From the NCBI GenBank assembly GCA_044508445.1, contig JBIQHQ010000003.1, positions 37,696 to 101,695 on the forward strand: a DNA stretch of 64,000 nucleotides, given 5' to 3'. Each line of letters starts with the position of its first letter. The first letter of the stretch is position 1. This document shows, in pieces, positions 5,275-50,548 of this stretch. Below the pieces are notes generated by a model. The model had not been told where the DNA came from. It saw nothing but the letters and a program-made list of their open reading frames with translations, and ran no database searches. The DNA comes from Deinococcaceae bacterium (GTDB taxonomy: Bacteria; Deinococcota; Deinococci; Deinococcales; Trueperaceae). A program made the translations under genes and the position numbers.

Positions 5275-5819
5275 GACACGGCCTCCGGCGCCGGCTCGAA
5301 GGGTGGCCAGGCCTCGTCCTTCGCCGAGATCACGGCCACCTCGCGGGGCCACGCGATGCCGAGGGCGGGGTCGTCGTAGCGGATGCCGCGCTCGGCGCCT
5401 GGGGTGTAGAACTCGCCCACCTGGTACACGACCTCGGCGCCGTCCACGAGCGTGAGGTAGCCGTGCGCGAACATCTCGGGCACGTAGAGCGCCAGCCTGT
5501 TCTCGGCCGTGAGGTCCACGCCGAAGTGCCGCAGGTAGGTGGGCGAGCCCGGCCGCAGGTCGACGATCACGTCGTGGACGGCGCCCGACGTGCAGCGCAC
5601 GAGCTTCGTCTCGGCCGCCGGCGGGAGCTGGTAGTGCATCCCGCGCATCGTGCCGGCCCTGTGGTTGTACGAGAGGTTCGCCTGCACGACCACGGGCTTG
5701 AGGCCCTGCGCGGCGAACTCGTCGGCGCAGTAGGTGCGGGCGAAGAAGCCGCGGTGGTCCTCGCGCCGCTCGAGCTCCACGACGTAGGCCCCCGCGAGGC
5801 CCGTCTCCCTGAAGATCAC
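5271..5819 (-). CDS. dTDP-4-dehydrorhamnose 3,5-epimerase family (RfbC-like cupin) sugar-nucleotide epimerase
   Basis: 182 aa with HRGFFARTY ... MRGMHYQ ... KLVRCTSGAVHDVIVDLR ... YVPEMFAHGY. GTG 5819-5817 overlaps the upstream stop (GTGA). The 5' part of the track ORF is Arg/Ala-rich junk. Confidence 0.85.
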   Translation of the reverse strand: MIFRETGLAGAYVVELERREDHRGFFARTYCADEFAAQGLKPVVVQANLSYNHRAGTMRGMHYQLPPAAETKLVRCTSGAVHDVIVDLRPGSPTYLRHFGVDLTAENRLALYVPEMFAHGYLTLVDGAEVVYQVGEFYTPGAERGIRYDDPALGIAWPREVAVISAKDEAWPPFEPAPEAVS

Positions 5820-6916
5820 GCGCCCGCCTCCAGCGCCTCGGCCGGCATGGGCGGCTGGCCGGCCGCCGACGCCGCGTCCACGGGCGTGCGCGCGTCCAGC
5901 CAGTAGAAGCGGTCGTCGATCTGGCCGGTGGCGAGGAGGTGCTTGAGCATCTTCAGCCTGGTGTAGAGGCGCGACTCGAACTGCTCGCGCGTGAGGGCTA
6001 TGCGCTCGAACACGGCCCGCAGCTCCTCGGCGCCCTGGCGGGCGTCCCAGTCGCAGGAGAAGCCGGGCAGCTCCGCCGCGATCTTGTCGAAGCGCACGCG
6101 GTAGCTCCTGTTGTCCGAGCCGCGGTCGCCGAACGAGAGCCGGCAGCCGGGGAAGACGTCGGCGACGACCTCGGCGATCTCCCTCACGCGGTAGTTGTGC
6201 CGCGTGTCCCCGACGTTGAAGACCTGGGCGTGCACGGCCTCGCGCGGCGCCTCCAGCGCGCAGGCCACGGCCTTGGCGATGTCGCGTCCGTGCACCAGCG
6301 GGCGCCACGGCGTGCCGTCGGAGACCATGCGGATCTCGCCCGTGGTGTGCGCGTAGCCGGCGAGGTTGTTGAGGACGATGTCGAAGCGCATGCGCGGGCT
6401 GGCGCCGTAGGCCGTGGCGTTGCGCAGGAACGTGGGCGAGAAGCCGTCGTCGGCCATCCGCGTGAGGTCGCGCTCGACGAGGACCTTGCACTGGGCGTAG
6501 GCGGTCTGCGGGTTCACGGGCGAGGTCTCGTCGACGAAGTCCTCCTCGGCCACGCCGTAGACGCTGCACGACGACATGTACACGAAGCGGGTCACGCCCG
6601 CCTGCTTGGCGAGGCGCGCCAGGTTCACGGACCCCTCGTGGTTGATCTCGTAGGTGATGTCCGGCACCAGCTCGCCCGTGGGGTCGTTCGACAGCTCGGC
6701 CATGTGCACGACGGCGTCGTAGCCGCGCAGGTCCTGGACGGTGAGCCGCCTCAGGTCCTCGACCTTCGTGTGCGGCGTGACGGCAGGCCCGTGGTAGAGC
6801 CAGCCCTCCTTGTAGAAGCCGGTGTCGACGCCCGTGACCTCGTGGCCGCGCCGCATCAGCTCCGGCGCGACTATCGTGCCGAGGTAGCCCTCGGTGCCGG
6901 TCACCAGAACTCGCAT
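5816..6916 (-). CDS. NAD-dependent epimerase/dehydratase (extended SDR)
   Basis: RVLVTGTEGYLG (GxxGxxG) and YAQCK (YxxxK). ATG 6916 follows GAGAGGTGAAGG; alternative GTG at 6925. Confidence 0.8.
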   Translation of the reverse strand: MRVLVTGTEGYLGTIVAPELMRRGHEVTGVDTGFYKEGWLYHGPAVTPHTKVEDLRRLTVQDLRGYDAVVHMAELSNDPTGELVPDITYEINHEGSVNLARLAKQAGVTRFVYMSSCSVYGVAEEDFVDETSPVNPQTAYAQCKVLVERDLTRMADDGFSPTFLRNATAYGASPRMRFDIVLNNLAGYAHTTGEIRMVSDGTPWRPLVHGRDIAKAVACALEAPREAVHAQVFNVGDTRHNYRVREIAEVVADVFPGCRLSFGDRGSDNRSYRVRFDKIAAELPGFSCDWDARQGAEELRAVFERIALTREQFESRLYTRLKMLKHLLATGQIDDRFYWLDARTPVDAASAAGQPPMPAEALEAGA

Positions 6917-6952
6917 CACCTTCACCTCTCGTCCCCGACCGCCCTCCGGCCG

Positions 6953-8365
6953 CTAGGCGCCGCCGAGGACCGCGTCGGTCGTCTCCAGGTAGTCGAACAG
7001 CGCCCGCACGTACCGCTGCCAGGCCCTCTCCGCCGCGTCCTCGGCCCGCCTGGCGTCGGCCGCGGCCCTGTCGGCGTCCCGCCCGGCGGCGGACGCCGCC
7101 GCGAGCGCCCGGGCCGCGTCGTCGCGCGCCACCAGGAGCAGGTGCAGCTCCTCGTAGGCGAGCTCGAGCAGCGCCAGGGCCTCCCGCTCGCGGGCGGGCT
7201 GCGCGGCCTCGAACCCGGCCTGCGCCCTCCGCGCGAGCTCCAGTTCGGCCAAGACCAGCGTCGAACGGTTCGATGAGGCGTTGCTGAACACCAGGCTGGC
7301 GCTCACCCCGAAGCGCAGGGCGTGCGCGTCGTCGCCGCTGCGCCAGCCGAGCTGAGCGTCCGCCGTCGGCACGCCGCGCCGCAGGCCCAGCTCGGCGCCC
7401 ACGAGGAAGCCGTCCCGGCGGTAGGAGGCCGTGACCTCCACCTCCGTGAGGTCTTGGAAGGGCAGGTCGCGCACGGCCAGCTCGGCCCGCTGCGTGGCGA
7501 TGGCCAGGGCGGCGGCCTCGCGGTGCGGCGAGGCGCGCTCGAGGCCTGGCGGCACCGGGCCGAGGAGGTAGGCGTCGGCGTCAGGGGCCGCTCCCGCCGC
7601 GCCGATCGCGGCGAGGACCGCGTCGCGCGGCCGGTACGACAGCCTCAGGCGCTCGACCGCCACGGACGCCAGCCCGGCCTCCACCTCGAGCGCCGACAGC
7701 TCGTCAGGGGAGGCGCCGGCCGCTCGGGCCGCCTCTAGTGCCGCCTGCGCCGCCGCCGCCTCCTCCTCGGCGTCGGCCAGCTCCCTGGCCGCCAGGCGCT
7801 CCCGGGAGAGCTCGAGCAGGCCGTCTCGCAGGTCGGCGCGGCGCTGGGCACGGTAGCGGCCCTCCGCCGCGGCCTGCGCCGCCAGCGCCCTCAGCAGGCG
7901 GTCCTCGTCGCGCTCGGCCCCCAGCGCCAGCTCCACCTCGAGCCCCGTGTCCCAGCCGGCGTCACCGTCCCGCAGGTCGAGCTCGTACTCCGCCTCGGGC
8001 GACGCCTCCAGCGCCACCGACGGGTCCCAACGCGCCCGCTCGACCTCGTCGGCGGCGGACGCGGCCTGCGAGAGGCGCAGCGCCGCCTCGCCGCTGACCA
8101 GCGTGGCCAGCAGCGCCAGGTCCTCCCTGAGCGGGTCGGCCGACGGCGGCAGCGGCCCCAGGCCCGAGGCGGGCGAGCGCGCCGCGGCCGGCGCCAGCGT
8201 CAGGGCCAGGGCCAGGGCCGAGCCCACGGACGCGAGGCGCGACCGCGCGGCGCGGCGGCCGCGCCTGTCGAAGGCGACGGGTCCCCCCACGGACCGCCCG
8301 CCCGCCACGGGGACCGGCCCGCGGCGCCCTACCCCAGGGGCGCCCGGTCTGGCAGCTTTCGGCAC
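6953..8365 (-). CDS. TolC-like outer-membrane protein (OEP-family-like), secreted
   Basis: 470 aa with a signal-like segment LASVGSALALALTLAPAAA, then a long Ala/Leu/Glu/Arg-rich helical repeat architecture with beta segments (VEVTASYRRDGFLVGAELGL, ALRFGVSASLVF). Family assignment is by resemblance only. Confidence 0.45.
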   Translation of the reverse strand: MPKAARPGAPGVGRRGPVPVAGGRSVGGPVAFDRRGRRAARSRLASVGSALALALTLAPAAARSPASGLGPLPPSADPLREDLALLATLVSGEAALRLSQAASAADEVERARWDPSVALEASPEAEYELDLRDGDAGWDTGLEVELALGAERDEDRLLRALAAQAAAEGRYRAQRRADLRDGLLELSRERLAARELADAEEEAAAAQAALEAARAAGASPDELSALEVEAGLASVAVERLRLSYRPRDAVLAAIGAAGAAPDADAYLLGPVPPGLERASPHREAAALAIATQRAELAVRDLPFQDLTEVEVTASYRRDGFLVGAELGLRRGVPTADAQLGWRSGDDAHALRFGVSASLVFSNASSNRSTLVLAELELARRAQAGFEAAQPAREREALALLELAYEELHLLLVARDDAARALAAASAAGRDADRAAADARRAEDAAERAWQRYVRALFDYLETTDAVLGGA

Positions 8366-8448
8366 GCGGTCAGAGTAGCGCCGCGTCCCCCCGGACCCGC
8401 CCGCCGCGTCACAGCGGCCGCGGCGCCGGGAAGGGGCTGTGAGGCGGG

Positions 8449-8462
8449 CTGAGAGCTCTCAG
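8449..8462. promoter_or_regulatory. perfect 14-bp palindrome CTGAGAGCTCTCAG in the divergent TolC-like/wzc-like intergenic region (candidate operator)
   Basis: Read directly from the sequence. It lies 12 nt upstream of a TACAGT -10-like hexamer (8474-8479), which precedes the SD-bearing leader of the 8516 gene. Confidence 0.5.
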
Positions 8463-8515
8463 GAAGCGTCTGCTACAGTCCGTTCTGGCCGAACCCTCGG
8501 CCCGAGAGAGGTCAG

Positions 8516-10111
8516 ATGACCAACGACGTGTCGATGGCCGTGGGCGAAGCCATGCGCCTCGTGCGGCGTGGGCTGAGCCTCGGCGTGGTGCTGGCCGTCG
8601 TCTTCGGCCTCGCCGCCTTCCTGTGGTCGCAGGGGCAGGCCCCTGTCTACGAGGCGGAGGCCACGGTGCTCGTGTCCTCCTCCACGGCCGACTTCCGCTC
8701 GTTCGGCGTGTCGCCCTTCGTGGCGCCGGCCATCGACGCCAGCGCCTACGAGGTGGCCGGCCGCAGCGACGCCGTGGCGCAGGCCGCGCAGGCAGCGCTG
8801 GGCGAGCAGGACCGGCCGCCCTCGGCGATCCGCTCGCAGTACAGGGTGTCGTCGCGCGACGACGGCACCTCGGCGCTGCTCACGGTCACGGGCCGCGCCG
8901 GCTCCCCGGAGCGCGCGGCCGGCGTGGCGAACGCCGTGGCCTCGGCGCTCGTCGCCTGGGACGTCGAGCGCGCCACCCGCAGCGTGGGCCAGGTCGTGGA
9001 GGCCCTCGAGCAGCAGATCGCCGCGCTCACCGAGCAGGTGAGGGCGCTGCAGGCCCTCGGCGACCCCGACCGGCAGTCGGAGATCGACGGCCTCATCTCG
9101 CTGCGCGCCCAGCAGCAGCAGTCGCTGGCAGTGGCGCGCGCGATGGGCGTGTCGGCGATAGGCAGGCTCGAGATCATCCAGCAGGCCGTGCCTAGCGCCT
9201 CGCCGGTGGCGCCCCGCCCGCTGGTCAACGCGCTGCTCGCCGCGCTCGCCGGCCTCGTGGTGGCCTACGGCGTCGTGATCATGCGCTCGCTCATGAACAC
9301 GCGCATCACCGACGTCGGCGAGGTCGAGGCCGTCTCCGGCGTGCCCATCCTGGCCGAGTTCCAGCGCCTCTCCAAGCCGGGGCGGCGCTTCCCCCGCGAG
9401 GCCGCCAGCTACCTGCGGACCGGCGTGCTCTTCGCCACCGCCGACGCCTCGCCCCGCGTGATCCTGGTGACGAGCGGGCGCTCGGGCGAGGGCAAGTCGG
9501 CCGTGGCCCTGAACCTCGCCGAGAGCTTCGCCCGCAACGACTACCGCACGCTGCTGGTCGACGCCGACCTCAGGCAGCCCGTGCTGTTCCAGGAGTACGG
9601 GCTGAGGCGCGGCCAGGCGTCGGAGCTCCTCGACTTCCTGCGCGACCCCGACGGGCCGCACATGGTGGCCCGCGTGCCCCTGGGAGGACGCCAGCGCCTC
9701 GACATAGTGCCCTCGTTCCAGGTCTCGACGCAGGCGGCGGAGATCCTCGGCCGCGGCTTCCCCGCCTGCGTGAACCGCTGGGGGCACGACTACGACGTCA
9801 TCGTCGTGGACTCGCCGCCGGTGCTGGCGGTGGCCGACGCCCTCACGATCGCGCCGTCCTGCACGGGCGCCATCCTGACCGTGAGCGTCCGCAAGGCCGA
9901 CAGGCGGCCGCTGCGCGCCACCCTAGACCTGCTGGAGCGCATGGGCGTGAGGCTGCTCGGCATCGCCGCGACCATGGTCGACGAGCCGCGCCTGCGCTCG
10001 GCGGGCGGCTACGGCTACGGCTACGGCGCTCCCCAGCCCACCGAGCCCGCGGCGCCGCCGCGGCCCGAGGCGAGGGTCAGCGTGAGGCCCACCAGCACCC
10101 GCCGCGGCTGA
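8516..10111 (+). CDS. polysaccharide co-polymerase / BY-type tyrosine autokinase (Wzc-like)
   Basis: N-terminal Wzz-like domain with 2 TM segments. C-terminal P-loop kinase with Walker A (SGRSGEGKSAVA) and Walker B (YDVIVVDSPPVLAVADA). C-terminal Tyr cluster GGYGYGYG. Confidence 0.85.
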   Translation: MTNDVSMAVGEAMRLVRRGLSLGVVLAVVFGLAAFLWSQGQAPVYEAEATVLVSSSTADFRSFGVSPFVAPAIDASAYEVAGRSDAVAQAAQAALGEQDRPPSAIRSQYRVSSRDDGTSALLTVTGRAGSPERAAGVANAVASALVAWDVERATRSVGQVVEALEQQIAALTEQVRALQALGDPDRQSEIDGLISLRAQQQQSLAVARAMGVSAIGRLEIIQQAVPSASPVAPRPLVNALLAALAGLVVAYGVVIMRSLMNTRITDVGEVEAVSGVPILAEFQRLSKPGRRFPREAASYLRTGVLFATADASPRVILVTSGRSGEGKSAVALNLAESFARNDYRTLLVDADLRQPVLFQEYGLRRGQASELLDFLRDPDGPHMVARVPLGGRQRLDIVPSFQVSTQAAEILGRGFPACVNRWGHDYDVIVVDSPPVLAVADALTIAPSCTGAILTVSVRKADRRPLRATLDLLERMGVRLLGIAATMVDEPRLRSAGGYGYGYGAPQPTEPAAPPRPEARVSVRPTSTRRG

Positions 10112-10140
10112 GCCGCGGTCTCGATGCGGAGGAAGAAGCG

Positions 10141-11496
10141 TTGAACGTCACGATCATAGGCACCGGCTACGTCGGGCTCACCACCGGCACCGCGCTGGCC
10201 TACCTGGGCCACAGCGTCACCTGCGTGGACAAGCAGGAGCGCGTGGTGGAGGCCCTCGAGCGCGGCGAGCCCACGATCCACGAGGCCGGCCTCGCCGCGC
10301 TGCTGCAGGCGGCGCGCGGCAACCTCTCGTTCCGCACCGACATCCCGCCCCTCGCCGGCACCGGCGTCGTGATGATCGCCGTGGGCACCCCCTCGAAGGA
10401 GAACGGCGACGCCGACATGAGGTACGTGGACGCGGCCGCCAAGGAGGTCGCCGACCTCATCCAGGAGGGCGCCCGCCTGGTCGTCGTGAACAAGTCGACG
10501 GTGCCGGTGGGCAGCGCTCGCCACGTGGAGGGCATCATCAGGAGGTGCCTGGAGGCCCGCGGCGTGACCGCCGAGGTGCACGTGGCCTCTAACCCGGAGT
10601 TCCTGGCCGAGGGCAAGGCCGTCCACGACACCTTCTACCCGGACCGCATAGTCATAGGCGCCGACGACCCCTTCGCCGTGGGCCTGCTCCGCGAGCTCTA
10701 CCAGCCCGTCCTCGAGCAGACCTTCGAGCCGCCGCCCGGCACGCCGCGGCCCGAGCGCTACGAGCTGCCGCCGCTGATCACGACCTCTGCCACCAGCGCC
10801 GAGCTCACGAAGTACGCGGCCAACGCGTTCCTCGCCACGAAGATCAGCTTCATCAACGAGTTCTCGCAGCTCGCCGAGATGGTGGGCGCCGACATCACGG
10901 AGGTCGCCCGCGCCATAGGCCTCGACCAGCGCATAGGCCCGCGGTTCCTCCACGCCGGCATCGGCTGGGGCGGCTCCTGCTTCGGCAAGGACACCGCCGC
11001 CGTGCTGGCGCTGGCCGCCAGCTACGACTACACGATGCCGATAGTCCGCTCGGCCATCGAGGTGAACAGGCGCCAGCGCCTCTTCATCGTCGAGAAGCTG
11101 CAGCAGCACCTGAAGGTGCTGCGCGGCACGACGATCGGCCTCCTCGGCCTGGCCTTCAAGGGCAACACCGACGACCTGCGCGACTCCCCGGCGCTCACGC
11201 TCGTCGAGCAGCTCGCCGACCGCGGCGCCGTCGTCAGGGGCTACGACCCGGTGGCGATGGACAACGCCAGGCGCCTCTACCCCGAGCTGCCCGTCGAGTA
11301 CTGCCAGGACGCCGAGTGCCTGGCCATTGGCTGCGACGCGCTGGTCCTCGTCACCGACTGGCCGGAGTTCAGGCAGCTCGACCTCGCCGCCCTGAGGCGG
11401 CGCATGCGCGGCACGCTGCTCCTCGACGCCCGCAACTACCTCCAGCCGCACGCCGTGAGGGCGGCCGGGCTCGACTACGTGGGCGTGGGCCGCTGA
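10141..11496 (+). CDS. ugd: UDP-glucose 6-dehydrogenase
   Basis: NVTIIGTGYVGLTTG, GWGGSCFGKD (catalytic Cys) and FKGNTDDLRDSPA. TTG start follows GGAGGAAG. Confidence 0.9.
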   Translation: MNVTIIGTGYVGLTTGTALAYLGHSVTCVDKQERVVEALERGEPTIHEAGLAALLQAARGNLSFRTDIPPLAGTGVVMIAVGTPSKENGDADMRYVDAAAKEVADLIQEGARLVVVNKSTVPVGSARHVEGIIRRCLEARGVTAEVHVASNPEFLAEGKAVHDTFYPDRIVIGADDPFAVGLLRELYQPVLEQTFEPPPGTPRPERYELPPLITTSATSAELTKYAANAFLATKISFINEFSQLAEMVGADITEVARAIGLDQRIGPRFLHAGIGWGGSCFGKDTAAVLALAASYDYTMPIVRSAIEVNRRQRLFIVEKLQQHLKVLRGTTIGLLGLAFKGNTDDLRDSPALTLVEQLADRGAVVRGYDPVAMDNARRLYPELPVEYCQDAECLAIGCDALVLVTDWPEFRQLDLAALRRRMRGTLLLDARNYLQPHAVRAAGLDYVGVGR

Positions 11497-11506
11497 GGGC
11501 CGCGCC

Positions 11507-13366
11507 TCACCAGCCCGTGAAGGTGCCGCCCTCCGGGACCAGCGCGGCTCGCACGTGCAGGCTCATGGGGTAGTAGGCGGCCACGTCCAGGGGGCGTCCC
11601 TGTTCGTCGTAGGCGTAGCGCGCGTCGAGCGGCCTGCCGGCGCCGTCGCGCAGCACCACGAGGACCTGGGCCATGCCCTGCGACCAGTCGATGGCCGCGG
11701 CGCCCTCCATGCCCGCCACGCTCTGCGCCACGCTCACCACGCCCTCGTCCTCGAGGCGCAGGGCGCTGGGCTCGCTGCAGGCGGGCCTGACCGTGATGAG
11801 GTCGTCGGGCACCAGGCATAGCTGGACGAGCACGGGCTCGTCGGTCGGCTTGTCGAGCAGCTCCACCTGCACGTGCAGCGTGCCCCGTCCGTAGGCGCGC
11901 AGGTCGCCCACGGCGGCGGCCGGCGCCTCGAGGAACGTGAAGGCCCCCTCGCCGCCCTGCTCCACGGGCCGTGGGCTGATCGTCGCGTCCACCAGCGCCA
12001 GGGCTTGGCCGGCGGCCGCCTGCGGCTCGGGCTCGGGCCGGGGCTCCGGCTCCGGCGGCAGCGCGGCGACGGCGTCGCCGCCCGGCTCCTCGTCCGGCTC
12101 CTCGGGAGCCGGCTCGGCCACGGGCGGCTCCTCTGCGGGAGGCTCGGCCACCGGTGGCTCCTCGGCGGGAGGCTCGGCCGCGGGCGGCTCCTGGGCCGGA
12201 GGCTCCTCCGCGACCGGCGGCTCCTCCTCGGGCTGCTCCACCACGGGCGGCTCCGCCGCGGGCTGCTCGGCCTCCTCGCCGCCGGGGGGCTCCGCCGCGG
12301 GGGGCTGGTCCGCGCCGTCCGGCCGCGCGCCGACGCCCGGTCCGGGCGGCGCCTCCGCCACGGGACCCGCCGGCTCCGCCGCGGGTGGCTGCCCGCCCGG
12401 CGGAGCCAGCACGACGGGCGGCGCCTCGGCCTCGGCGGCGGCCTGCGCCTCCGCCTCGGCCTCGGCGGCCGCCTGCGCCTCCTGCGCCGCCTGGGCGGCG
12501 ACCTCGGCGGCCTGGGCCGCCGCGTCGAGCCTGGCCAGCACCGCCCGTACCTCGGCGTCGTCGGGGTCCACGCTCAGCGCCCGCTCCCACAGGCGCCGCG
12601 CCTCGTCGGCGCGGCCCAGCGCGGCGTTGGCCTGGGCCGCGCCCTTGATCGCGTCGACGAAGCCGGGGTCGCTCTGCATGGCCGCCACGTAGAGCGAGAG
12701 CGCCCCGGCCATGTTGTCCTGCGCGAACTGGCGCTCGGCGGCCAGGAACGCGTCGGCGGCGCCCAGGCCGTGCTCGGCCCCGAGCGTCGCCCTCTGCAGC
12801 GTCGGCCTGAGCTGCGGGTAGGTCTCGGCGGCGACCTCCAGGAGAGGTATCGCGCCCTCCACGTCGCCCGTCTGCAGCCTCGCCTGACCCAGGTAGGTGA
12901 CGGTGGTCAGGTCGTCCGGCACGAGGTCGTAGCTGGCTTCCAGCAGCTCCCGCGCCCGCTCCATGGCCCCGGCGGTGAAGGCCTGGTAGCCGAGCACGAG
13001 GGCGGCGCGGGCGGCGTCGGCGCGGGCGCGCGCGTCCAGCGTGCCCCCCAGCTCCAGGTACTCCTGCCACGCCTCCCAGGTCCGCGACGTCCAGCCCGTG
13101 ATGCCGTACACCTGCGCCAGGAACCGCAGCGGCTCGAGGCGGCCCGGCGCCAGCGAGCGCGCGCGCTCGCCCTGCGCTATGGCCTCGCGCCACAGGGGCT
13201 GGTCGGGGTAGTGCGCCTCGTAGGTGGCCACCGCCTCGGCCGCGGCGAGCTGGCCCGCGCGCAGCGCCTCGCTCGCCGCCTCGGGCAGGGCGCCCTGCCC
13301 CGCGGCCAGCGGCCAGGCCACCGCCAGAAGCGACAGCGCTAGGTGCTTGAGCCGGCGGTACGACAC
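11507..13366 (-). CDS. secreted TPR-repeat protein with Pro/Glu-rich linker and C-terminal domain of unknown function
   Basis: Signal peptide (RRLKHLALSLLAVAWPLAAG), then TPR-like helical repeats. A low-complexity AEPPAEEPPV repeat region follows, then a ~190-aa C-terminal domain. Start is GTG 13366 (7 nt after TAACCT) or ATG 13372. Confidence 0.7.
   Translation of the reverse strand: MSYRRLKHLALSLLAVAWPLAAGQGALPEAASEALRAGQLAAAEAVATYEAHYPDQPLWREAIAQGERARSLAPGRLEPLRFLAQVYGITGWTSRTWEAWQEYLELGGTLDARARADAARAALVLGYQAFTAGAMERARELLEASYDLVPDDLTTVTYLGQARLQTGDVEGAIPLLEVAAETYPQLRPTLQRATLGAEHGLGAADAFLAAERQFAQDNMAGALSLYVAAMQSDPGFVDAIKGAAQANAALGRADEARRLWERALSVDPDDAEVRAVLARLDAAAQAAEVAAQAAQEAQAAAEAEAEAQAAAEAEAPPVVLAPPGGQPPAAEPAGPVAEAPPGPGVGARPDGADQPPAAEPPGGEEAEQPAAEPPVVEQPEEEPPVAEEPPAQEPPAAEPPAEEPPVAEPPAEEPPVAEPAPEEPDEEPGGDAVAALPPEPEPRPEPEPQAAAGQALALVDATISPRPVEQGGEGAFTFLEAPAAAVGDLRAYGRGTLHVQVELLDKPTDEPVLVQLCLVPDDLITVRPACSEPSALRLEDEGVVSVAQSVAGMEGAAAIDWSQGMAQVLVVLRDGAGRPLDARYAYDEQGRPLDVAAYYPMSLHVRAALVPEGGTFTGW
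12111..12230 (-). repeat. degenerate 30-bp tandem repeat (3-4 units) encoding the PPAEEPPVAE linker of the TPR protein
   Basis: Plus-strand units are ggctcggccacgggcggctcctctgcggga, ggctcggccaccggtggctcctcggcggga and ggctcggccgcgggcggctcctgggccgga, plus a degenerate fourth. Confidence 0.8.
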
Positions 13367-13466
13367 GCTCATGAGGTTAGCGCCGTGCGTCACGTTGACG
13401 GGTTCACATGGGGCTGGCCTAATCATGAGCGCAAGACGCCGCCGGCTCCGGCGGCGGGATGGGTAG

Positions 13467-15083
13467 GTGCGGATGGGAAGGCTGCGAACGTTGACGGCCG
13501 CATTGGCCGTCCTGGCGCTGCTGGCGACCGGCTCGGGCCAGGACGGCGGCGGGCCCGACTGGGGTCGTCGGGCGCTGGGTCAGCTCGGCGACGCCGGTTT
13601 CGACCTGGGCTTCCCCGACGGCTCGTTCCTGGGCGAGGGCGCGGTCACCGGCTACCAGGCGGCGGTGCTCGTGGACAGGCTGCTGGCGCGCGCCGACGCC
13701 GCCACGGGCTGCACCGACGCCATGGCCGGCCTGCCCGACACGGGCTTCGCCTTCAGCGACGTCCCGGCCGACCACTGGGCCGCCGGCGCCGCGGCGCGGG
13801 TGGCCGCCCTGGGCGTCCAGGAGGCGTTCCCCGACGGACGCCTGAACGGGGACGAGTTCCTCACGGGCTTCCAGACGGCGGCGCTGATCGCCGGCGCCGT
13901 CTCGGCGGTGGACGCCAAGGTGGAGTGCGGCGAGTCGACCGTCGCCGAGCGGCTGGGCGCGATGAGCGCAGAGGTGCAGTCGCTGCGGGCCGCCATCGCC
14001 GAGGGCGCTCTGCAGGGACCCCCGGGACCGCAGGGACCGCCAGGGGAGGCGGGCCCGCCCGGGCCGCCAGGGCCGCCAGGGGAGGCCGGGCCGGCAGGTC
14101 CGCCCGGTCCCGAGGGGCCCGAGGGTCCCGCCGGTCCGCAGGGTCCGCCCGGGGAGCAGGGCCCCGCCGGTCCGGCCGGCCCCGAGGGTCCCGTTGGTCC
14201 CGCCGGACCTCCCGGCGAGGTGGGCGCCACGGGTCCGGCGGGTCCTCCGGGACCGCCGGGACCCCCGGGTCCGCAGGGCGAGGTCGGCCCCGTGGGGCCG
14301 GCAGGTCCGCCGGGACCTCCGGGCGCCGACGGCGCCCCGGGACGCGACGGCCTGGCGTGTTGGGACAGCGACGGCGACGGGGCGCCGAGCGAGGGCGAGG
14401 ACGTGGACCTCGACGGCGTCGTGGACGCGAACGACTGCGTGGGTCCGCCCGGACCGCCGGGGCCGCAGGGCGACGTCGGCCCCGCCGGACCGCCCGGACC
14501 CCCTGGACCGATGGGCCCGGCCGGTCCCGCCGGCCCGGCCGGCGAGATGGGACCGCCGGGACCGCAGGGCGAGCAGGGCCCTCCGGGGCCGCAGGGCGAC
14601 GTGGGCCCGGCCGGTCCTCCGGGCCCCGCCGGCGAGGCCGGCCCGGCGGGTCCTCCGGGTCCCGCCGGCGAGAAGGGCGACCCCGGTCCGGAGGGTCCCG
14701 CCGGACCGCAGGGCCCCGCGGGCCCCAAGGGCGACCCGGGCGAGCAGGGTCCGGCGGGCCCGAAGGGCGACAAGGGCGACAAGGGCGACCAGGGCGAGCC
14801 GGGACCGGCGGGTCCCGAGGGTCCCGCCGGACCGCAGGGCCCTGAGGGACCGCAAGGTCCGCAGGGTCCCGAGGGCCCGCCCGGCGAGTGCGACTGCCCC
14901 GCCGCCGTGGGCCAGACGGCGGCGACCGAGGAGGCGCTGCCCGCGGCGGGCTCGGCACGCGCCTACGCGGTGATCCAGGCGGTCCAGCTCGCCTGCGGCG
15001 CCGGCGGGCTGCCGCCGGGCGTCGACTACGTGATCGAGCCGCTGCCCGAGCCGGCGTTCACGGCCCGCGCACCGGACGGCTGA
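13467..15083 (+). CDS. SLH-domain collagen-like triple-helix repeat protein (paralogue A)
   Basis: Signal peptide and SLH motif [29 protein letters not shown]. Heptad-like segment after KVECGE. GXY tracts at aa 184-295 and 326-474, separated by [28 protein letters not shown]-terminal GECDCP plus a ~60-aa tail. Confidence 0.85.
14016..14351 (+). repeat. collagen-type GXY tract 1 of paralogue A (37 triplets)
   Basis: Uninterrupted Gly every third residue from aa 184 to 295 ([18 protein letters not shown]...[10 protein letters not shown]). Confidence 0.9.
14442..14888 (+). repeat. collagen-type GXY tract 2 of paralogue A (about 49 triplets)
   Basis: aa 326-474, [18 protein letters not shown]...[16 protein letters not shown]...GPPGE, followed directly by CDC. 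Confidence 0.9.
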
Positions 15084-15102
15084 GCACACCGGGGAGGGGA
15101 GG

Positions 15103-15133
15103 GGCGCGCGGGCCGCACATCGGTCCGCGCGCC
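15103..15133 (+). terminator. GC-rich hairpin between the two collagen-like genes (candidate intrinsic terminator)
   Basis: ggcgcgcgggcc / gcacatc / ggtccgcgcgcc gives a 12-bp stem with one G-U pair and a 7-nt loop, followed by gcttcctct. It lies 20 nt after the stop at 15083 and just before the TACCCT hexamer of the next gene. Confidence 0.5.
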
Positions 15134-15152
15134 GCTTCCTCTACCCTGGGCC

Positions 15153-16283
15153 ATGCGCAAGAGGGTCACTGGCAGGCTCGTGCCGACGGCTCTGCTCGTC
15201 GTGCTGGCAACCTTCGGGCTGACCCAGGGCGACGTCCAGTGGGGCCGCGACGCCGTGCGGGGCCTCAGCGAGGGCGGGGTGGACGTCACGTTCCCGGACG
15301 GCTCCTTCCTCGGCGAGGGCGCGCTCACCGGCTACCAGGCCGCGGTCCTCGTCGACAGGCTGCTCTCCCGCGTCGACGCCGCCACGGGCTGTCCCGACCA
15401 GCTCGTTGCCGGTCCCGTGGAGGGGTTCGCCTTCGTCGACGTTCCCGAGGACCACTGGGCCAGAGACTCGGTGGAGCGCCTGGCGACCCTGGGCGTGGCG
15501 CCGGCGTTCCCCTCGGGCGAGTTCCGCGGCGACTCGTTCCTCAGCGGCTACCAGACGGCCCTGCTCCTCGACAAGGCCCTCGACCTGGCCATGGAGAAGG
15601 TCGTCTGCGGCGAGGAGCGCCTGTACCAGCGCGTCGACGACCTGGCGGACCGGCTGCAGACAGTCCTCGACGCCATGGCGGCGGGAGAGTTCGTCGGGCC
15701 CGAGGGCCCGGCCGGTCCTCCGGGGCCCGAGGGCCCTGCCGGCGCGTCCTGCTGGGACCTCGACGGCGACGGCCGGGCCGGACCCGGCGAGGACGTGGAC
15801 GGCGACGGCGCCGTCGGTGTCCTCGACTGCCGCGGGCCCCAGGGCCCAGCGGGCCCGGCCGGCCCACAGGGACCGCAGGGGCCCAGGGGCGAGCGCGGGC
15901 CCATAGGGCTGCCGGGGGCGGACGGCGCGCCGGGCGCACCGGGGCGTCCCGGGGACCCCGGCCGCACCGGCCCGGCGGGCCCGGCCGGTCCTCCGGGCCC
16001 CGCCGGCGAGCCCGGGCTCGCCTGTTGGGACCTCGACGCCGACGGGGCGCCCGACCTGGGTGAGGACGTGGACGGCGACGGCCTGGTGGGCGTTCTCGAC
16101 TGCCGGGGCGAGCAGGGGCCCGCCGGCCCTCCGGGACCTCAGGGACCGCCCGGCCCGGCCGGCCCGGCGGGTCCGCAGGGGCCCGAGGGACCGCCGGGAC
16201 CGCAGGGCCCCGCCGGTCCGGCGGGTCCTCCCGGGCCGCAGGGTCCGCAGGGCCCCCAGGGGCCGCCCGGCGCGCCCGGCTGA
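15153..16283 (+). CDS. SLH-domain collagen-like triple-helix repeat protein (paralogue B)
   Basis: Same N-terminal architecture as 13467..15083 ([54 protein letters not shown]). Three GXY tracts are separated by two Cys-bracketed DxDxDG modules. The protein ends inside the GXY repeat. Confidence 0.85.
15834..16016 (+). repeat. collagen-type GXY tract 2 of paralogue B (20 triplets)
   Basis: aa 228-288, [28 protein letters not shown]...GEPG. A short 5-triplet tract lies at 15696-15743. Confidence 0.9.
16107..16280 (+). repeat. collagen-type GXY tract 3 of paralogue B (19 triplets, runs to the C-terminus)
   Basis: aa 319-376, [19 protein letters not shown]...[16 protein letters not shown], then the stop. 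Confidence 0.9.
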
Positions 16284-16302
16284 GGACCGCGCCGCGCGCG
16301 CC

Positions 16303-18078
16303 CTAGCGCAGCGTGATCGTGAAGTACCGCGGCTCCGACTGCGCGGGACCGCCGCCCGCACCGCCCGAGTCGCGCAGCACGACCTGGAACGTGGCGGAGC
16401 CCGTCCCGAAGGCGGTGAACCGCAGCGTGCCCTGGGCGTCGATCGTGGGCGCGGGGAGGAAGGGCGGCCTGTCGCCGTCGTACCAGGTCACGACGAAGGT
16501 GAGGCCCTGTCCCGCCTCGTCCTCGCCGCCTCCCGGCGACACGTGCTGGGCGAAGCCCTCCACGGTCACGGCCCTGGCGACGCTCGCGTCCACGGTGTCC
16601 CGCAGCAGCTCGAACGTGGGCGGGTCGTTGACCGCCTCCACCTTCACCGTCGCCTTGACGTCCTTGCTGACGGCGCCCAGGCCGTTCCTCACCCTGTAGG
16701 TGAACGCGAAGGGCCTCACGTCGTCGCTCTCGGGGCGGAACGTGAAGGAGCCGTCCGCCGCCAGGTCGAGGTCGCCGTGGTCGTCGGCCGACACCAGCTC
16801 CACCGTGGCGTCGTCCCCCGCCGCGTCGTTCGCCAGCACGCCGGGGGCCGGCACGCTCAGCTCGGTGTCCTCCGGCGTGGCGTACTGGTCGGGCTTCACC
16901 GCGGGCGGGGGGACGAGCTCCAGCGACACCTCGGCGGTGGGTCCCGCCACGTCGTGGGCGCCGCGGAGGCGGTAGGAGAACGTCACGCCCGACGGGGGGC
17001 GGCCGGGCGGGGAGTAGGTGAAAGACCCGTCGGCGCCGAGGTCGAGCTCCCCCGGACCCGCGAACTCCACGAGCTCGGCCCGCGCGCCACCGCCGGCCTC
17101 GTCGTTGGCCAGCACGCCCGGCGCGGCGACGTCGGAGGGGGCGTCGGCCCTCAAGGCGAAGGCGTCGGGCTCCGCCACCGGCGTCACGGCGGCCACGACC
17201 GTCACGTACGTGAGGCCGCGCACGCCGGCCACGCAGAAGCCCTGGCCGGTCTCGCAGGCCCCGGCCAGGCCGAGGAGCCGGGAGCGGTCGGGGTCGGCGG
17301 GCGCCGCGTTCACGCTCACCTGCAGGACGCTGCCGGACGTGTAGGTGAAGCCGAGGAGGCAGTCGGCGTCGGGGCGCACCTCGCAGGCGTCGAAGCCCCT
17401 GTCGTCCGGCGGGGAGACGGTGACCTCCACGGGGGCGTCGCCGTCGAGGCCGAGCCGCAGCACGTGGGAGCGGAACAGGGCGGTCACCGTCGTGTCCTCG
17501 TCCACGACGAGGCGACAGGCGGGCGTGGGCGGGCAGGGCGCCCCGAACCCCGCGAACGCGGCGTCACCGTCGCTGCCGGACAGCGAGGCCTCCGACCCCG
17601 GCGCGAGGCCCACCACGCAGTCGTCGCTGCAGGTCAGCGGCCCGGCTCCCCCCTCCACCGACACGGTGCCCTGGCCGTCCAGGTCCAGCGTGAGGCGCAC
17701 CCCGGGCAGCGGGGCCACGGGACCGGCGTCCTGGACCACGGGCACGCCGGGCCCGTCCGGACCGACGGCGGCCACGGCGTAGCCGTAGGAGACCCCCGGC
17801 TCGGCCGTGTAGTCGGCGTGCTCCCTGGCCTCGCCGGGGACGCGCGCCAGCTCGGCCATCCCTCCGCCGGCGGCTGCCCTGTAGACGACGAACGACTCGG
17901 CGCCGTCACCCCCCGACCAGGCCACGAGGACGCCGGCGGGGACCGGCGTGGCGGTGACGTCGCCCACCGGCCCGGGGCGCGGGCTCGGCGCGCCGCACGA
18001 CGCCAGGCACGCGGCCAGCCCGAGCGCCGCGCCTACGGCCCTCAGCCGCCGGATGGGGTGCTGCGCACGCTGGGACAC
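16303..18078 (-). CDS. surface lipoprotein with FN3-like and tandem cadherin/Ig-like (GVLAND) repeats
   Basis: Lipoprotein-type signal [13 protein letters not shown]3-like [17 protein letters not shown]...YGYAVAAV. Two ~90-aa modules containing APGVLAND...DGSFT(Y/F), plus a VNDPPTF motif. GGAGGA lies 6 nt before the GTG start. Confidence 0.7.
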
Positions 18079-37368: not shown

Positions 37369-37506
37369 TTCCCCTCGCTCCGCGCGAGTCCGTCGGTGCT
37401 CCCGCGTTATCCCGGGTGAGAAGCCGTCTACGCGGACGCCGGCGGGCCGGGGATATGGTGGCCGCAACGACGCTGAGGGCCCCCGTGGGCCCCGGGAGTG
37501 ATCTGC

Positions 37507-40500
37507 ATGGCGGCAACGGTGGACCTCGTGCGCCAGCACATCGGCCGCGGCGGCGCGGCGGCCGAGGCGGGGCTGCTCGAGCGCTTCGTGACGGCGCTCT
37601 TCGACAAGGCGGAGGAGGGCTTCGCCGCCCAGTTCGACAGCGCCGACCTCTACGCGATGGCCGTCGACGGGCTCGCGTTCCTGCGCGAGCTCGACGGCGT
37701 GTTCAAGGTCGAGGTGCTGAACCCCACGGCCGCGGCGAACGGCTGGGAGTCGCCCTTCACGGTCGTGCGCCTGGTGATGACGGACAGGCCGTTCATCGTC
37801 GACTCGGTGCAGGCCGAGGTGGCCAGGCAGGGCCTCGACCTCGCCTACCAGCTCCACCCGATCCTCGACGTGGTGCGCGACGAGTCGGGCCGCCTCCTTG
37901 ACGTCGACGGCGACGCCCCTGGCAGGCCCGAGGCCTTCGAGATGTTCTTCGTCGAGCGCGTGGAGGGCGCCGCGCTCCGGCGGCTACGGAACCGGCTCAA
38001 GGCCGTGCTCGAGGACGTCTACCGCGCCACCCGCGACTACGGCCCCATGCGGGAGCGCTCGCAGGAGACCGTCGACTACCTCCTCGACCTGGCCCGGTCG
38101 GGCACTCAGCCGGCCGCCGGCGTCAAGGCCGACGAGGTCGGCAACGACCTCGAGGACGAGCTCACCGAGTACGCCGAGTTCATCAAGTGGCTGCTGGACG
38201 AGAACTTCGTCTACCTCGGCTACCGGGAGTACGAGCTCAAGGACGTGGCCGGCGCGCCGCACCTGCAGGTGCGCGGCGGGACCGGCCTGGGCATCCTCTC
38301 CGAGGACGCCGACAGCCGCTACCAGCAGCCCGTGCCCGTCTCCAGCCTGCCGCGGCAGCTTCGCGAGCGGGTGGTGGGCGGCAGGCTGCTCGTGGTCACG
38401 AAGACGAACTCCGAGGCCACGGTCCACCGCGCCAGGCGCATGGACTACGTGGGGGTGAAGGAGCTGGGGGCGGGCGGCGAGGTCGTGGGCGAGCGGCGCT
38501 TCCTCGGCCTCTTCACCGGCAAGGCGCAGAACACGCCCGTCGAGGCGATCCCCATCCTCAGGCGCAAGCTGCGCCAGGTGCTGGAGCTGGACGAGGCGGT
38601 GCCGGGCAGCCACGACTACAAGGCCATAGTGGCGGCCTTCAACTCGCTGCCGCGGGAGGAGCTCTTCGGCGCCGACCCGGAGCAGCTCCACAAGGACATC
38701 CGCGCGATCCTCTCGCTCGAGCAGGAGCGCGGCGCGCGGCTGCGGCTGCGCCCCGACCCGCTGAAGCGCGGGATCCTGGCCATGGTCGTCATGCCGCGCG
38801 AGAGCTTCAACAGCCAGGTCCGTCAGCGCATCCAGGAGTACCTGCAGAGGGCGCTGTCGGCCACGCACGTCGACTATCGGCTGGCGCTCTCGGAGGACCA
38901 GGACAGCGCCAGGTTCCACTTCTACTTCGCCACCGACGTCGAGCTGGAGGACGTGGACGTCAAGGAGCTCGAGCGGAACGTGGCCAGGCTGTCGCGGAGC
39001 TGGCGCGAGGAGCTGCAGGAAAGGCTCATCGAGAGGTTCGGCGAGGCCGCGGGTCGGGCGCTGGCCCGCCGCTACGGCGGCGCCTTCGACGAGGGCTACT
39101 ACGCCGAGGTGCGCCCGGCGCGCGCCGTCCAGGACATCGCCAACCTCGAGAGCCTGGGGCCCGGCGAGACGGGCTTCGACCTCGTGGACGACGAGGAGGA
39201 CCAGGAGGCCACGGTCCTCGTCTACTACCCGGCCGGCCGGTCGCGGGCGCTCTCCGACGTGCTGCCCATGCTCGAGAACCTGGGGCTGAGGGTCGTCGAC
39301 CAGAACCCCTACGACGTCACCCTCGGCGACGGTGAGAGGGCCGTGGACGTCTACCGCGTCACCGACCTCGAGGGCCGGCGGCTCGACGTCCCCGGCGTGG
39401 AGGAGAGGCTCGTGGCCGCGCTGCACGCGTTGGCCGCGGGCGAGGCAGAGAACGACGCGCTGAACCGCCTGGTCCTCTACGCCGGCCTGACGATCAGGCA
39501 GGTGGCGCTGCTGCGCGCCTACCAGATGTACTACTCGCAGCTCAACCTCGTGACCAGCCCGGCGTTCGTGACCTCCACGCTGCTGGCCCACCCGGACGTG
39601 GCGCGGCTGCTGGTGGAGTACTTCGAGCGCCGCTTCGACCCCGCCTTCACCGGCGGCGGGGACGCCCCGCTGGCCCCGGGCGAGCGGGCGCCGTTCCTCG
39701 CCGAGGCGGCGGAGGCGGTGCGCGGCGCCCTGTCCACGGTGGCGTCCCTGGCCGGCGACCAGGCGCTGCGGGGGCTGCTCGACCTCATGGAGGCCACGGT
39801 CCGCACGAACTACTACCTGGGCCACGCCCGCATCAGCTTCAAGATCGACTCGCGGAGGGTGGGCAGCATGCCGGAGCCGCGGCCCCTCTACGAGGTCGGC
39901 GTGCACTCGCCCACCGTCGAGGGGACGCACCTGCGAGGCGGCAAGGTCGCGCGCGGCGGCATCCGCTGGTCGGACCGGCCCGACGACTTCCGCACCGAGG
40001 TGCTCGGCCTCATGAAGACGCAGATGACGAAGAACGCCGTCATCGTGCCCGTGGGGTCGAAGGGCGGCTTCGTCGTCAAGCGCGCCCCCTCCGACCCGGC
40101 CGAGCTGCGCGAGCACGTGCGGGCGCAGTACCAGGAGTACCTGCGCGGGCTCCTCGACGTGACGGACAACGTCGTGGACGGTGCCACGGTGCACCCGGCG
40201 GGCGTCCTCGTCTACGACGAGCCGGACCCGTACCTCGTGGTGGCGGCCGACAAGGGCACGGCCACGTTCTCCGACCTGGCCAACGCCACCGCGGCCGAGT
40301 ACGACTTCTGGCTCGGCGACGCCTTCGCCTCGGGCGGCTCGGCCGGCTACGACCACAAGGGAATGGGCATCACGGCGCGCGGAGCGTGGGAGTGCGTGAA
40401 GCGTCACTTCGCCGAGATGGGTCTCGACGTCTTCCGCGACGAGTTCACGGTCGTGGGCATAGGCGACATGTCGGGCGACGTGTTCGGCAACGGCATGCTC

Positions 40501-43513: not shown

Positions 43514-43599
43514 GCCAGCCGAGGTTACAGGGCCCGCGGGCCGGCGCCGGTGCCGGCGGAGCGTGCCGCGCGACGCGCGCGGCCGCGTGTACGGACGAA

Positions 43600-43627
43600 G
43601 AGGCGGCGCCCGAGAGGGCGCCGCCTC
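43600..43627 (-). terminator. perfect 12-bp-stem hairpin downstream of the ABC solute-binding protein gene
   Basis: gaggcggcgccc / gaga / gggcgccgcctc. On the minus strand it is followed by ttcgtccgt. It lies 22 nt after the stop at 43650. Confidence 0.6.
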
Positions 43628-43649
43628 CAGCGCTAGCGGCGCGCTCAGC

Positions 43650-45023: not shown

Positions 45024-45133
45024 CTGCTCTCCCTCTCCCTCGCGAGCTCGCCGAGCCCGCGTGAACGTTGCAGCCTGAGTAGATGTTAGTCGCGCGGTGC
45101 CCGTGGATGTGCCCCGTGCGGGTCTCGGCTTCA

Positions 45134-48399: not shown

Positions 48400-48424
48400 C
48401 CGGGGCGCGGGCCACGCGCCCCGG
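48400..48424 (+). terminator. perfect 10-bp-stem GC hairpin immediately after the THUMP methyltransferase stop
   Basis: ccggggcgcg / ggcca / cgcgccccgg. There is no U tract, so the function as a terminator is uncertain. Confidence 0.4.
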
Positions 48425-48485
48425 CGGGCACGGGCCCCGGCGGGCGGCGAGGAGCCCCTCTCCTCGGCCGCGGCGCGGCCTGAGC

Positions 48486-48491
48486 TACACT
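48486..48491 (+). promoter_or_regulatory. -10-like hexamer TACACT, 6 nt upstream of GTG 48498
   Basis: gcTACACTccgcgcGTG. Confidence 0.5.
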
Positions 48492-48497
48492 CCGCGC

Positions 48498-50473: not shown

Positions 50474-50548
50474 GGGCGCGTCGTCGGGGCGCGCGGGACG
50501 CCGCGACGCGCGCCGACCCGCGCTCGCCGGGCCCGTCGGCGCGCCCCG

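Follow-up and report, generated by a model that had tools for sequence, protein, structure and literature searches.

Two tandem genes for SLH-collagen proteins

We analyzed a stretch of 64,000 nucleotides from a Deinococcaceae bacterium (GenBank assembly GCA_044508445.1, contig JBIQHQ010000003.1, positions 37,696 to 101,695 of the forward strand), referred to here as the window, in which two adjacent genes, A and B, encode proteins that combine an N-terminal head of surface layer homology (SLH) repeats with long collagen-like Gly-X-Y tracts. The two genes are tandem paralogues of one small family of predicted secreted envelope rods, and this family is real, conserved, and uncharacterized. Both open reading frames (ORFs) were found where a preliminary description of the sequence had placed them, A at 13467-15083 and B at 15153-16283. 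They lie on the same strand with 69 bp between them, and the stop codon of B is 20 bp from a convergent neighbor. At the level of the genes, the evidence consisted of ORF calls, Pfam matches judged by the curated cutoffs (20.8 bits for SLH, PF00395; 27.2 bits for Collagen, PF01391), and the ratio of nonsynonymous to synonymous substitution rates (dN/dS). The layout of the two genes, for which AlphaFold2 (AF2) models were also used, is as follows (aa, amino acids).

13467-15083, + strand: gene A, long type, SLH-collagen protein of 538 aa, stop codon included in the coordinates (ORF, Pfam, dN/dS)
13467-13538, + strand: gene A, predicted Sec signal peptide, about aa 1-24 (read from the sequence: basic n-region, hydrophobic core)
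13557-13712, + strand: gene A, SLH repeat 1, aa 31-82 (W32...FPDGSF...TGYQAA...C82; domain E = 5.1e-11 to the SLH part of profile A4)
13746-13928, + strand: gene A, SLH repeat 2, aa 94-154 (AFPDG...TGFQTA...C154; Pfam SLH at residues 96-138; aligns with the SLH domain of SlpA, 7zgx)
13929-14015, + strand: gene A, predicted short coiled coil and collagen junction, aa 155-183 (AF2 helix, 3,4 hydrophobic spacing, hhalign)
14016-14357, + strand: gene A, collagen tract 1, 38 Gly-X-Y triplets, aa 184-297
14358-14438, + strand: gene A, Cys-to-Cys double DxDxDG module, aa 298-324
14442-14891, + strand: gene A, collagen tract 2, 50 triplets, aa 326-475, the last being the G-E-C of GECDCP
14889-15080, + strand: gene A, C-x-C and conserved C-terminal tail, aa 475-538, with C510 (alignment of the A-type tails of loci L002, L006, L007, and L008)
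15153-16283, + strand: gene B, short type, SLH-collagen protein of 376 aa, stop codon included in the coordinates (ORF, Pfam, dN/dS)
15153-15227, + strand: gene B, predicted Sec signal peptide, about aa 1-25 (read from the sequence)
15237-15392, + strand: gene B, SLH repeat 1, aa 29-80 (domain E = 1.6e-11)
15426-15608, + strand: gene B, SLH repeat 2, aa 92-152 (Pfam SLH at residues 94-131; domain E = 3.9e-17)
15609-15695, + strand: gene B, predicted short coiled coil and junction, aa 153-181 (family alignment; 3,4 hydrophobic spacing)
15696-15749, + strand: gene B, collagen tract 1, 6 triplets, aa 182-199
15750-15830, + strand: gene B, double DxDxDG module 1, aa 200-226
15834-16022, + strand: gene B, collagen tract 2, 21 triplets, aa 228-290
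16023-16103, + strand: gene B, double DxDxDG module 2, aa 291-317
16107-16280, + strand: gene B, collagen tract 3, 20 triplets, aa 319-376, conserved C terminus

Despite a G+C content of 77-83% and the long ORFs that the region carries in several frames, the reading frames of A and B are real, because dN/dS is low: 0.14-0.26 for A (against the orthologues at L006 and L008) and 0.13-0.19 for B (against those at L026 and L027), with purifying selection acting on the head and the collagen parts alike (0.13-0.25 against orthologues). An alternative start codon is possible for A (ATG at 13473), and its signal peptide region appears in the AF2 model as a low-confidence helix (residues 4-20). An Rfam scan of the window returned no RNA family, and scans of 13200-16500 for promoter and terminator consensus sequences found none, as expected at such a G+C content.

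The N-terminal head

The preliminary description had recognized SLH-type motifs in both proteins together with a degenerate upstream copy, and both observations stand. PF00395 scored 27.8 bits in A and 29.1 bits in B, and an independent SLH profile recovered repeat 1 as well as repeat 2 (domain E values of 5e-11 and 1.7e-12 in A, 1.6e-11 and 3.9e-17 in B), giving two SLH repeats per chain by Pfam and the independent profile together. Aligning the heads of 21 family members revealed invariant positions at W32, F49-G52, T61-Y63 (including G62), C82, W104, G134, and C154 in A numbering. The motifs F-P-D-G-S-F / A-F-P-x-G and T-G-[YF]-Q are common to the family, and each repeat carries an invariant Cys exactly 21 residues past the Thr of T-G-[YF]-Q (C82 and C154 in A). 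The K-V-x-C-G-E motif that had been noted after the SLH region is likewise conserved, C154 being invariant and G155 nearly so in these 21 sequences.

The heptad-like segment reported to follow this motif is also borne out. Hydrophobic residues with 3,4 spacing cover about three heptads in A (V159, L163, M166, V170, L173, and I177) and recur in B (L157, V161, L164, L168, V171, and M175), and a single continuous helix is predicted for residues 134-178. In the AF2 model of the head, which has a predicted local distance difference test score (pLDDT) of 87, no break separates the core helix of repeat 2 from this segment, and pLDDT exceeds 90 along the continuous helix. The coiled coil passes into the collagen tract through a conserved junction, [AS]-G-x-[LF]-x-G-P-x-G-P, of which G-x-[LF]-x-G-P-x-G-P is invariant.

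Searched against all PDB sequences, the head profile found its best match in Deinococcus radiodurans SlpA (7zgx, E = 2.7e-12), together with the OmpM stalks 8bz2, 8bys, and 8bym (E of about 3e-12 to 2.5e-11); the SlpA and OmpM alignments extend from the SLH domain into the first part of the coiled coil. A Foldseek search of the PDB with the head model returned mostly long-helix proteins such as fumarases, probably owing to the signal peptide and the long helix that the model contains.

Collagen tracts and C termini

The collagen assignment was confirmed by Pfam (PF01391, 133 bits in A and 64 bits in B). The strict periodicity described earlier holds, and the triplet counts needed correction: the exact runs are 38 plus 50 in A, not 37 plus about 49, and 6 plus 21 plus 20 in B, not 5 plus 20 plus 19. 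When the residues were shuffled 2,000 times, the longest Gly-X-Y run never exceeded 8. At the X and Y positions, 51% of the residues are Pro and 13-19% are charged. The tracts are predicted to form triple helices for which hydroxyproline would not be needed. Computed rod lengths of 75.5 nm for A and 39.5 nm for B match the values of about 75 and 39 nm given before. The NCBIfam models for the collagen-like proteins Scl2, Lcl, and Scl1 (NF038329 and NF038330 among them) matched the Gly-X-Y region only, at scores far under their cutoffs (150.5 versus 325 bits, 97.5 versus 400, and 107 versus 500).

The C termini had to be reinterpreted. A does not end with GECDCP, as had been proposed; a further 61 residues follow, carrying a motif kept in orthologues that consists of a third Cys (C510 in A) and then G[IV]DY[VL]IxP[LV]PxE-x-[FL]. 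This tail (aa 475-538) has no Pfam match, and it could serve as a docking tip. B does end within Gly-X-Y, as stated previously, and this is not a truncation, the ...GPPGxx-stop end being conserved in about 16 genomes. A PEP-CTERM-type sorting signal in the tail of A (IEPLPEP) was considered and rejected, as no transmembrane or basic segment follows it. The sequences of A and B contain neither a hydrophobic stretch at the C terminus nor an LPXTG motif.

A heterotrimer of A and B chains was also rejected, since the chains would be out of register, with their modules at unlike triplet positions. The module follows about 30-38 triplets in the A type, about 23-25 triplets in the typical B type, and 6 and 27 triplets in the B protein of the window.

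A Cys-bracketed module interrupts the collagen tracts

Every interruption of the collagen repeat is the same 27-residue Cys-to-Cys unit, which produces a 28-residue break. Its consensus is C-W-D-x-[DN]-x-[DN]-G-x-x-x-x-x-E-D-x-[DN]-x-D-G-x-x-x-x-x-D-C. Among 56 distinct copies, the module always measures 27 aa from Cys to Cys, with no variation at C1, W2, D3, D19, D26, and C27. A pair of 12-residue DxDxDG loops, one directly after the other and each with an acidic position 12, fits 52 of the 56 copies, and the core of the module is modeled by AF2 with a pLDDT of 90-93.

Loop 1 has the D-x-D-x-D-G-x5-E spacing seen in EF-hands, and loop 2 (D-V-N-L-D-G-V-V-D-V-L-D) aligns with loops of type I dockerins such as DVNDDGKVNSTD. 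Unlike EF-hands and dockerins, however, the module has no flanking helices, and its loops are directly adjacent, bracketed by Cys residues, and set within a collagen helix. Pfam gave subthreshold hints of Dockerin_1, EF-hand, and FG-GAP (Dockerin_1 and EF-hand_5 at E of about 0.07-0.1). Foldseek found no match for a 42-residue model of the module, and a word-indexed database search with a 42-column module profile returned nothing at E ≤ 10, family members included, probably as a result of composition filters and the shortness of the profile. Judged by its motif, the module is probably a calcium-binding knot or hinge with disulfide-capable cysteines. If this is correct, a cystine-bracketed insert with a double calcium loop would represent a new kind of non-collagenous break, one that may be useful for the engineering of recombinant bacterial collagens.

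Family, distribution, and architectures

When 1.84 billion representative proteins were searched exhaustively with the profile, only about 20 clusters at 50% identity had the full head (E < 1e-30); the matches beyond these were generic SLH proteins. The family thus delimited is essentially restricted to Trueperaceae. Scanning 185,579 species genomes yielded 37 loci, whose named sources are Trueperaceae, Deinococcales, and Deinococcota metagenome-assembled genomes (MAGs) only. This agrees with the Deinococcus-Thermus setting that had been assumed, and the lineage is Deinococcota, Trueperales. The sole named source outside Trueperaceae and Deinococcales belongs to protein P0021, which NCBI labels as coming from a Gemmatimonadaceae MAG; this is probably a binning or labeling outlier, the alternative being a rare transfer. 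The invariant functional residues persist down to about 40% identity.

Four architectures were distinguished. The A type has about 30 triplets, a module, 29-60 further triplets, the C-x-C, and a tail of about 60 aa. The B type has about 24 triplets, a module, about 20 triplets, and the ...GPPGxx end; the B protein of the window departs from this pattern by one additional module (6+21+20 triplets). A third architecture consists of 27-28 triplets ending in GEC[ND]CP, and a fourth ends directly after the module. Across the family, the rods span 28-89 triplets. No C-terminal barrel is present in about 30 complete orthologues, nor in A, with its 64-aa tail, or B, with its Gly-X-Y end.

Relation to connectors of the outer membrane and the cell wall

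SlpA (7zgx, 7zgy) and OmpM (8bym, 8bys, 8bz2), the best solved-structure relatives of the head, are trimeric connectors of the outer membrane (OM) and peptidoglycan (PG) whose stalk carries its SLH trimer on the side of the wall (PMC9388160; bioRxiv 10.1101/2023.08.14.552755). The family of A and B shares features of this type of stalk, but its coiled coil is short, whereas SlpA and OmpM have large porin-like barrels, all-alpha stalks, SLH domains with TRYE, and no collagen.

Proteins of a second, large Deinococcota family consist of a signal peptide, one SLH domain (TRYQ), a coiled coil, the junction [AS]GxLxGPxGP, a Gly-X-Y segment, a Pro-rich linker, and a small beta-barrel whose last residue is Phe (members P0078, P0099, P0113, and P0197-P0311, including P0225, P0287, and P0289; locus L038, 6001-7164). 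The Gly-X-Y segment measures 4-27 triplets in more than 80 of about 115 members among the matches listed. Trueperaceae and cultured Deinococcus species are both represented, with 9 triplets in D. daejeonensis, 15 in D. alpinitundrae, and 21 in D. yavapaiensis, and a Gly-X-Y segment also in D. rubellus. The public annotation of these members, as SLH or collagen-repeat proteins, is automatic. Proteins with an SLH domain, a coiled coil, and an 8-stranded barrel have been proposed as additional connectors of the OM and the wall, with collagen unmentioned (von Kügelgen et al. 2022, PMC9388160), and the collagen-bearing tethers appear to be these connectors.

By hhalign, the family of A and B matches the tether family with a probability of 99.7%, in an alignment that leads from SLH repeat 2 through the coiled coil into the collagen junction. 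The two have in common an N-terminal SLH region, a core helix that continues into the coiled coil, the same junction, and the same phylum; by homology, compartment and trimeric state would be equal as well. In contrast, the barrel tethers have one SLH domain with TRYQ or TRYE and GxxxG[FY]P, a coiled coil of about 70-90 aa, 4-27 triplets, and an OM barrel, whereas the family of A and B has two TGYQ SLH repeats, about three heptads, 28-89 triplets, putative calcium-loop modules, and no barrel. On these sequence features, we take it to be a barrel-less, two-SLH, long-collagen derivative of the tether type. Given that a tether stalk with Gly-X-Y must lie in the periplasm, collagen in this compartment has a precedent in the same clade.

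The closest functional analogue, to the extent that it is described in the citing paper, would be Omp-alpha of Thermotoga maritima, a rod-shaped spacer of the periplasm that is anchored by SLH and lacks a beta-barrel. In this protein, an alpha-helical coiled coil forms the rod, and a transmembrane helix is present at the C terminus (Engel et al. 1992, cited in PMC9388160), unlike in A and B, whose rod is collagen and whose C termini contain no hydrophobic segment. The family of A and B extends the theme of SLH-anchored envelope rods, as seen in SlpA-like tethers and Omp-alpha, and is no categorically new system. This also qualifies the view, expressed in the preliminary description, that no SLH-anchored collagen rod has been characterized. 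In the literature accessible without subscription, we found neither SLH-collagen proteins nor collagen-bearing tethers of Deinococcota described, and to that extent the view holds; the SLH-collagen fusion as such, however, is already present in the databases, in the tether family and in cultured Deinococcus.

Genomic neighborhood

A conserved gene order surrounds A and B: Wzc-like kinase, UDP-glucose dehydrogenase, a tetratricopeptide repeat (TPR) protein on the opposite strand, A, B, a cadherin-like lipoprotein on the opposite strand, and gatB. The neighboring features are as follows.

5816-6925: NAD-dependent epimerase
6953-8365: 470-aa protein in the polysaccharide cluster
8516-10111: Wzc-like co-polymerase/tyrosine kinase with GNVR and P-loop domains
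10141-11496: UDP-glucose 6-dehydrogenase (Ugd)
11507-13426, - strand: exported TPR protein, possible partner, with a Pro/Glu/Ala-rich spacer of about 130 aa (Pfam TPR_19, E = 4e-14)
16303-18078, - strand: predicted lipoprotein (LAACLASCG) with bacterial cadherin-like/Big_9 domains

The TPR gene is divergent from A and adjoins a family gene in 27 of the 37 loci, including distant ones (39-42% identity). From this synteny alone, a functional tie between the TPR protein and the SLH-collagen proteins is possible. The low-complexity spacer of the TPR protein contains EPPVAEEPPAQEPPAAEPPAEEPP and precedes a C-terminal domain of about 170 aa; G+C rises locally to as much as 85%. The protein weakly resembles PrsT, which is associated with exopolysaccharide (EPS). 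The lipoprotein gene is convergent with B and lies downstream of SLH-collagen genes in 14 loci. The upstream polysaccharide synthesis cluster (5816-11496) is syntenic with SLH-collagen genes in 9-18 loci. An SLH profile scan of the window proteins found no other SLH gene and no tether gene. The pyruvyl transferase gene csaB was not found among the 41 predicted proteins of the window, to which this search extended.

Possible function

We favor, at somewhat better than even chances, the view that A and B are semi-rigid, trimeric collagen struts or spacers, held by their SLH head in the unusually wide Deinococcota periplasm. The idea of a spacer or rod, put forward in the preliminary description, gains support from the homology of the head to the stalks of solved OM-PG connectors (7zgx, 8bz2, 8bys, and 8bym; E of about 3e-12). 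At their far end, the rods have no beta-barrel, transmembrane helix, or lipid anchor. Because of this lack of a membrane anchor, and because the part of the Deinococcota tethers to which the head is homologous is their peptidoglycan-side end, we infer a strut or spacer rather than a tether.

Such a rod might be assembled as follows. The Sec system would export the chains, and three of them would trimerize via the coiled coil as in the stalks of SlpA and OmpM, which would nucleate the collagen helix from the N to the C terminus. C82 and C154 would come to lie at equal heights of the parallel SLH core helices, where disulfides may lock the head. The modules would form calcium- and disulfide-stabilized knots or hinges in the rod, and in the A type an interchain cystine knot may be formed by the C-x-C. 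Finally, the SLH head would hold the rod at the wall layer via a glycan ligand, probably independently of pyruvate, and the rods would complement the tension-bearing barrel tethers.

By estimate, the 28-triplet type would reach about 28 nm, the B type about 44 nm, and the A type 55-76 nm, with the short classes overall at about 28-45 nm. D. radiodurans has a periplasm of 121 nm, an OM-PG gap of 30 nm, and an SlpA stalk of 28 nm (PMC9388160). The scale of the rods is therefore plausible, as their lengths fit the dimensions of this envelope. In the B type (16 loci), the rods total 42-45 triplets, while the segments vary between 23-28 and 15-21 triplets. The segment lengths are anticorrelated, with r between -0.91 and -0.94 and p = 0.0005 in a permutation test that makes no correction for shared ancestry. 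Compensation between the segments argues for selection on total rod length in the B type and is the strongest hint of it.

Several points weigh against periplasmic struts, the missing correction for ancestry among them. The spread of 63-89 triplets among A-type rods is not that of a ruler. Wall anchoring by the SLH head is assumed, and the residues expected to bind the ligand are not conserved. In characterized SLH domains, SLH-Arg43 of the TRAE/TRYE motif makes a salt bridge to the ketal-pyruvate, SLH-Trp13 stacks on the sugar, and SLH-Gly29 of GIIxG permits a backbone flip for binding (PMC6081394). The sugar-stacking Trp is kept in the 21 aligned heads (W32 and W104). The position of Arg43 is an invariant Gly in both repeats (G62 and G134, in T-G-[YF]-Q), and that of Gly29 is an invariant Ala in repeat 2 (A120) and varies between G, T, A, and S in repeat 1. 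With Arg43 and Gly29 replaced, binding to a pyruvylated secondary cell wall polymer, as suggested in the preliminary description, cannot be assumed. The invariant Arg-to-Gly exchange in both repeats points to an SLH subtype with another ligand. Furthermore, two SLH repeats per chain would make six per trimer, which has no simple fit to a three-pronged SLH spindle, and in the Foldseek search the top TM-score of the head was a weak 0.42-0.45 at E = 3, to the SLH domains of Sap (3pyw). As for the module, its calcium binding is read from the motif; the strict PROSITE EF-hand pattern (PS00018) matched none of the 56 copies, and a PDB profile search returned dockerin and EF-hand calcium loops only, all at E ≥ 0.04. 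More generally, the A and B proteins are known here from their sequences and from predictions.

A more far-reaching version, which we put forward tentatively and consider doubtful as a whole, would make the family a length-tuned periplasmic compression strut or ruler. The SLH pair would sit on a pyruvate-free ligand, the knots would set register or flexibility, and length classes of 28, about 44, about 52, and 63-89 triplets would set layer spacing. In this version, collagen would be a regular component, overlooked so far, of the OM-wall connectors across the Deinococcota, cultured Deinococcus included.

The loss of the pyruvate-binding Arg from both SLH repeats would also suit an extracellular matrix or capsule-associated collagen network, in which the SLH pair binds the polysaccharide of the neighboring cluster, or nothing, and the rods are cross-linked by calcium modules and cysteines to form a matrix or sheath. 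The many cysteines and predicted calcium sites per chain, the weak likeness of the TPR neighbor to EPS-associated PrsT, and the synteny with the co-polymerase/tyrosine kinase, UDP-glucose dehydrogenase, and epimerase, kept in 9-18 loci, point in the same direction. Synteny within one family, however, is weak evidence of a functional link. Moreover, the proteins have a Sec signal only, with no recognizable route across the OM, the sugar-stacking SLH Trp is invariant, the head is homologous to periplasmic tether stalks, and the tight length conservation of the B type suits a spacer better than a mesh, so that we regard such a network as unlikely. Distinctly unlikely is a surface fiber or adhesin comparable to streptococcal Scl or Bacillus BclA, with the A tail as a binding tip, a role that the preliminary description had also entertained. 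Most characterized bacterial collagen-like proteins are indeed surface fibers, the Scl2, Lcl, and Scl1 models match the Gly-X-Y tracts, the conserved C-terminal tail of the A type might be a tip, and the variable length of this type is usual for such fibers. Like Scl1/Scl2, Lcl, and BclA, A and B would have a hydroxyproline-free Gly-X-Y rod, rich in Pro and charge, next to a trimerization element. Yet the NCBIfam scores are far below the cutoffs and reflect the repeats only, and A and B lack both LPXTG and a C1q-like head, whereas Scl, Lcl, and BclA are surface fibers anchored via LPXTG or the exosporium and equipped with globular heads. Anchor type, orientation, and predicted compartment all differ, and the N-terminal anchor of A and B would be periplasmic: Trueperaceae encode OM barrel tethers with SLH stalks and hence have an outer membrane with the SLH ligand beneath it.

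Homology of the head, coiled coil, and junction to tethers of the same clade raises another possibility, namely, that A and B are accessories that co-assemble with the barrel tethers, the Arg-less SLH repeats docking on or capping the SLH trimers or stalks of the tethers to bundle or regulate them. This might explain why the ligand residues are lost here while the tethers keep TRYQ, as well as the misfit of six SLH repeats per trimer with a simple spindle. The idea is speculative, no tether gene lies within the window, and we consider it very improbable. Effectively refuted is an origin as a remnant of a phage collagen-like tail fiber or as a spurious ORF from GC-rich repeats. PHROG tail fiber families do match A and B with E values down to 4e-54, and the G+C content of 77-83% brings long ORFs in several frames. 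These matches, however, cover Gly-X-Y only, the head having none among the PHROG families, and no relative was found in IMG/VR. Besides, the neighbors are housekeeping and envelope genes in conserved chromosomal synteny, dN/dS in the annotated frame is 0.13-0.25, and the invariant residues are kept down to about 40% identity.

If A and B indeed act as periplasmic struts, bacterial collagen would be, beyond its use in surface fibers, an intra-envelope structural element in a deep-branching, stress-resistant phylum. The family would then offer a natural set of rods of defined lengths for testing the control of periplasmic width, for which mainly Lpp length variants have served so far. For the short Gly-X-Y segments of the barrel tethers, cultured Deinococcus species provide tractable organisms for direct tests.

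Other features of the window

A simple gene call based on G+C at third codon positions (GC3) predicted no gene in 43514-45133 and 48400-50548, which measure about 1.6-2.1 kb. The largest gene of the window (37498-42333, + strand) encodes an ordinary bacterial NAD-specific glutamate dehydrogenase of 1611 aa with the full set of ACT and helical-motif domains.

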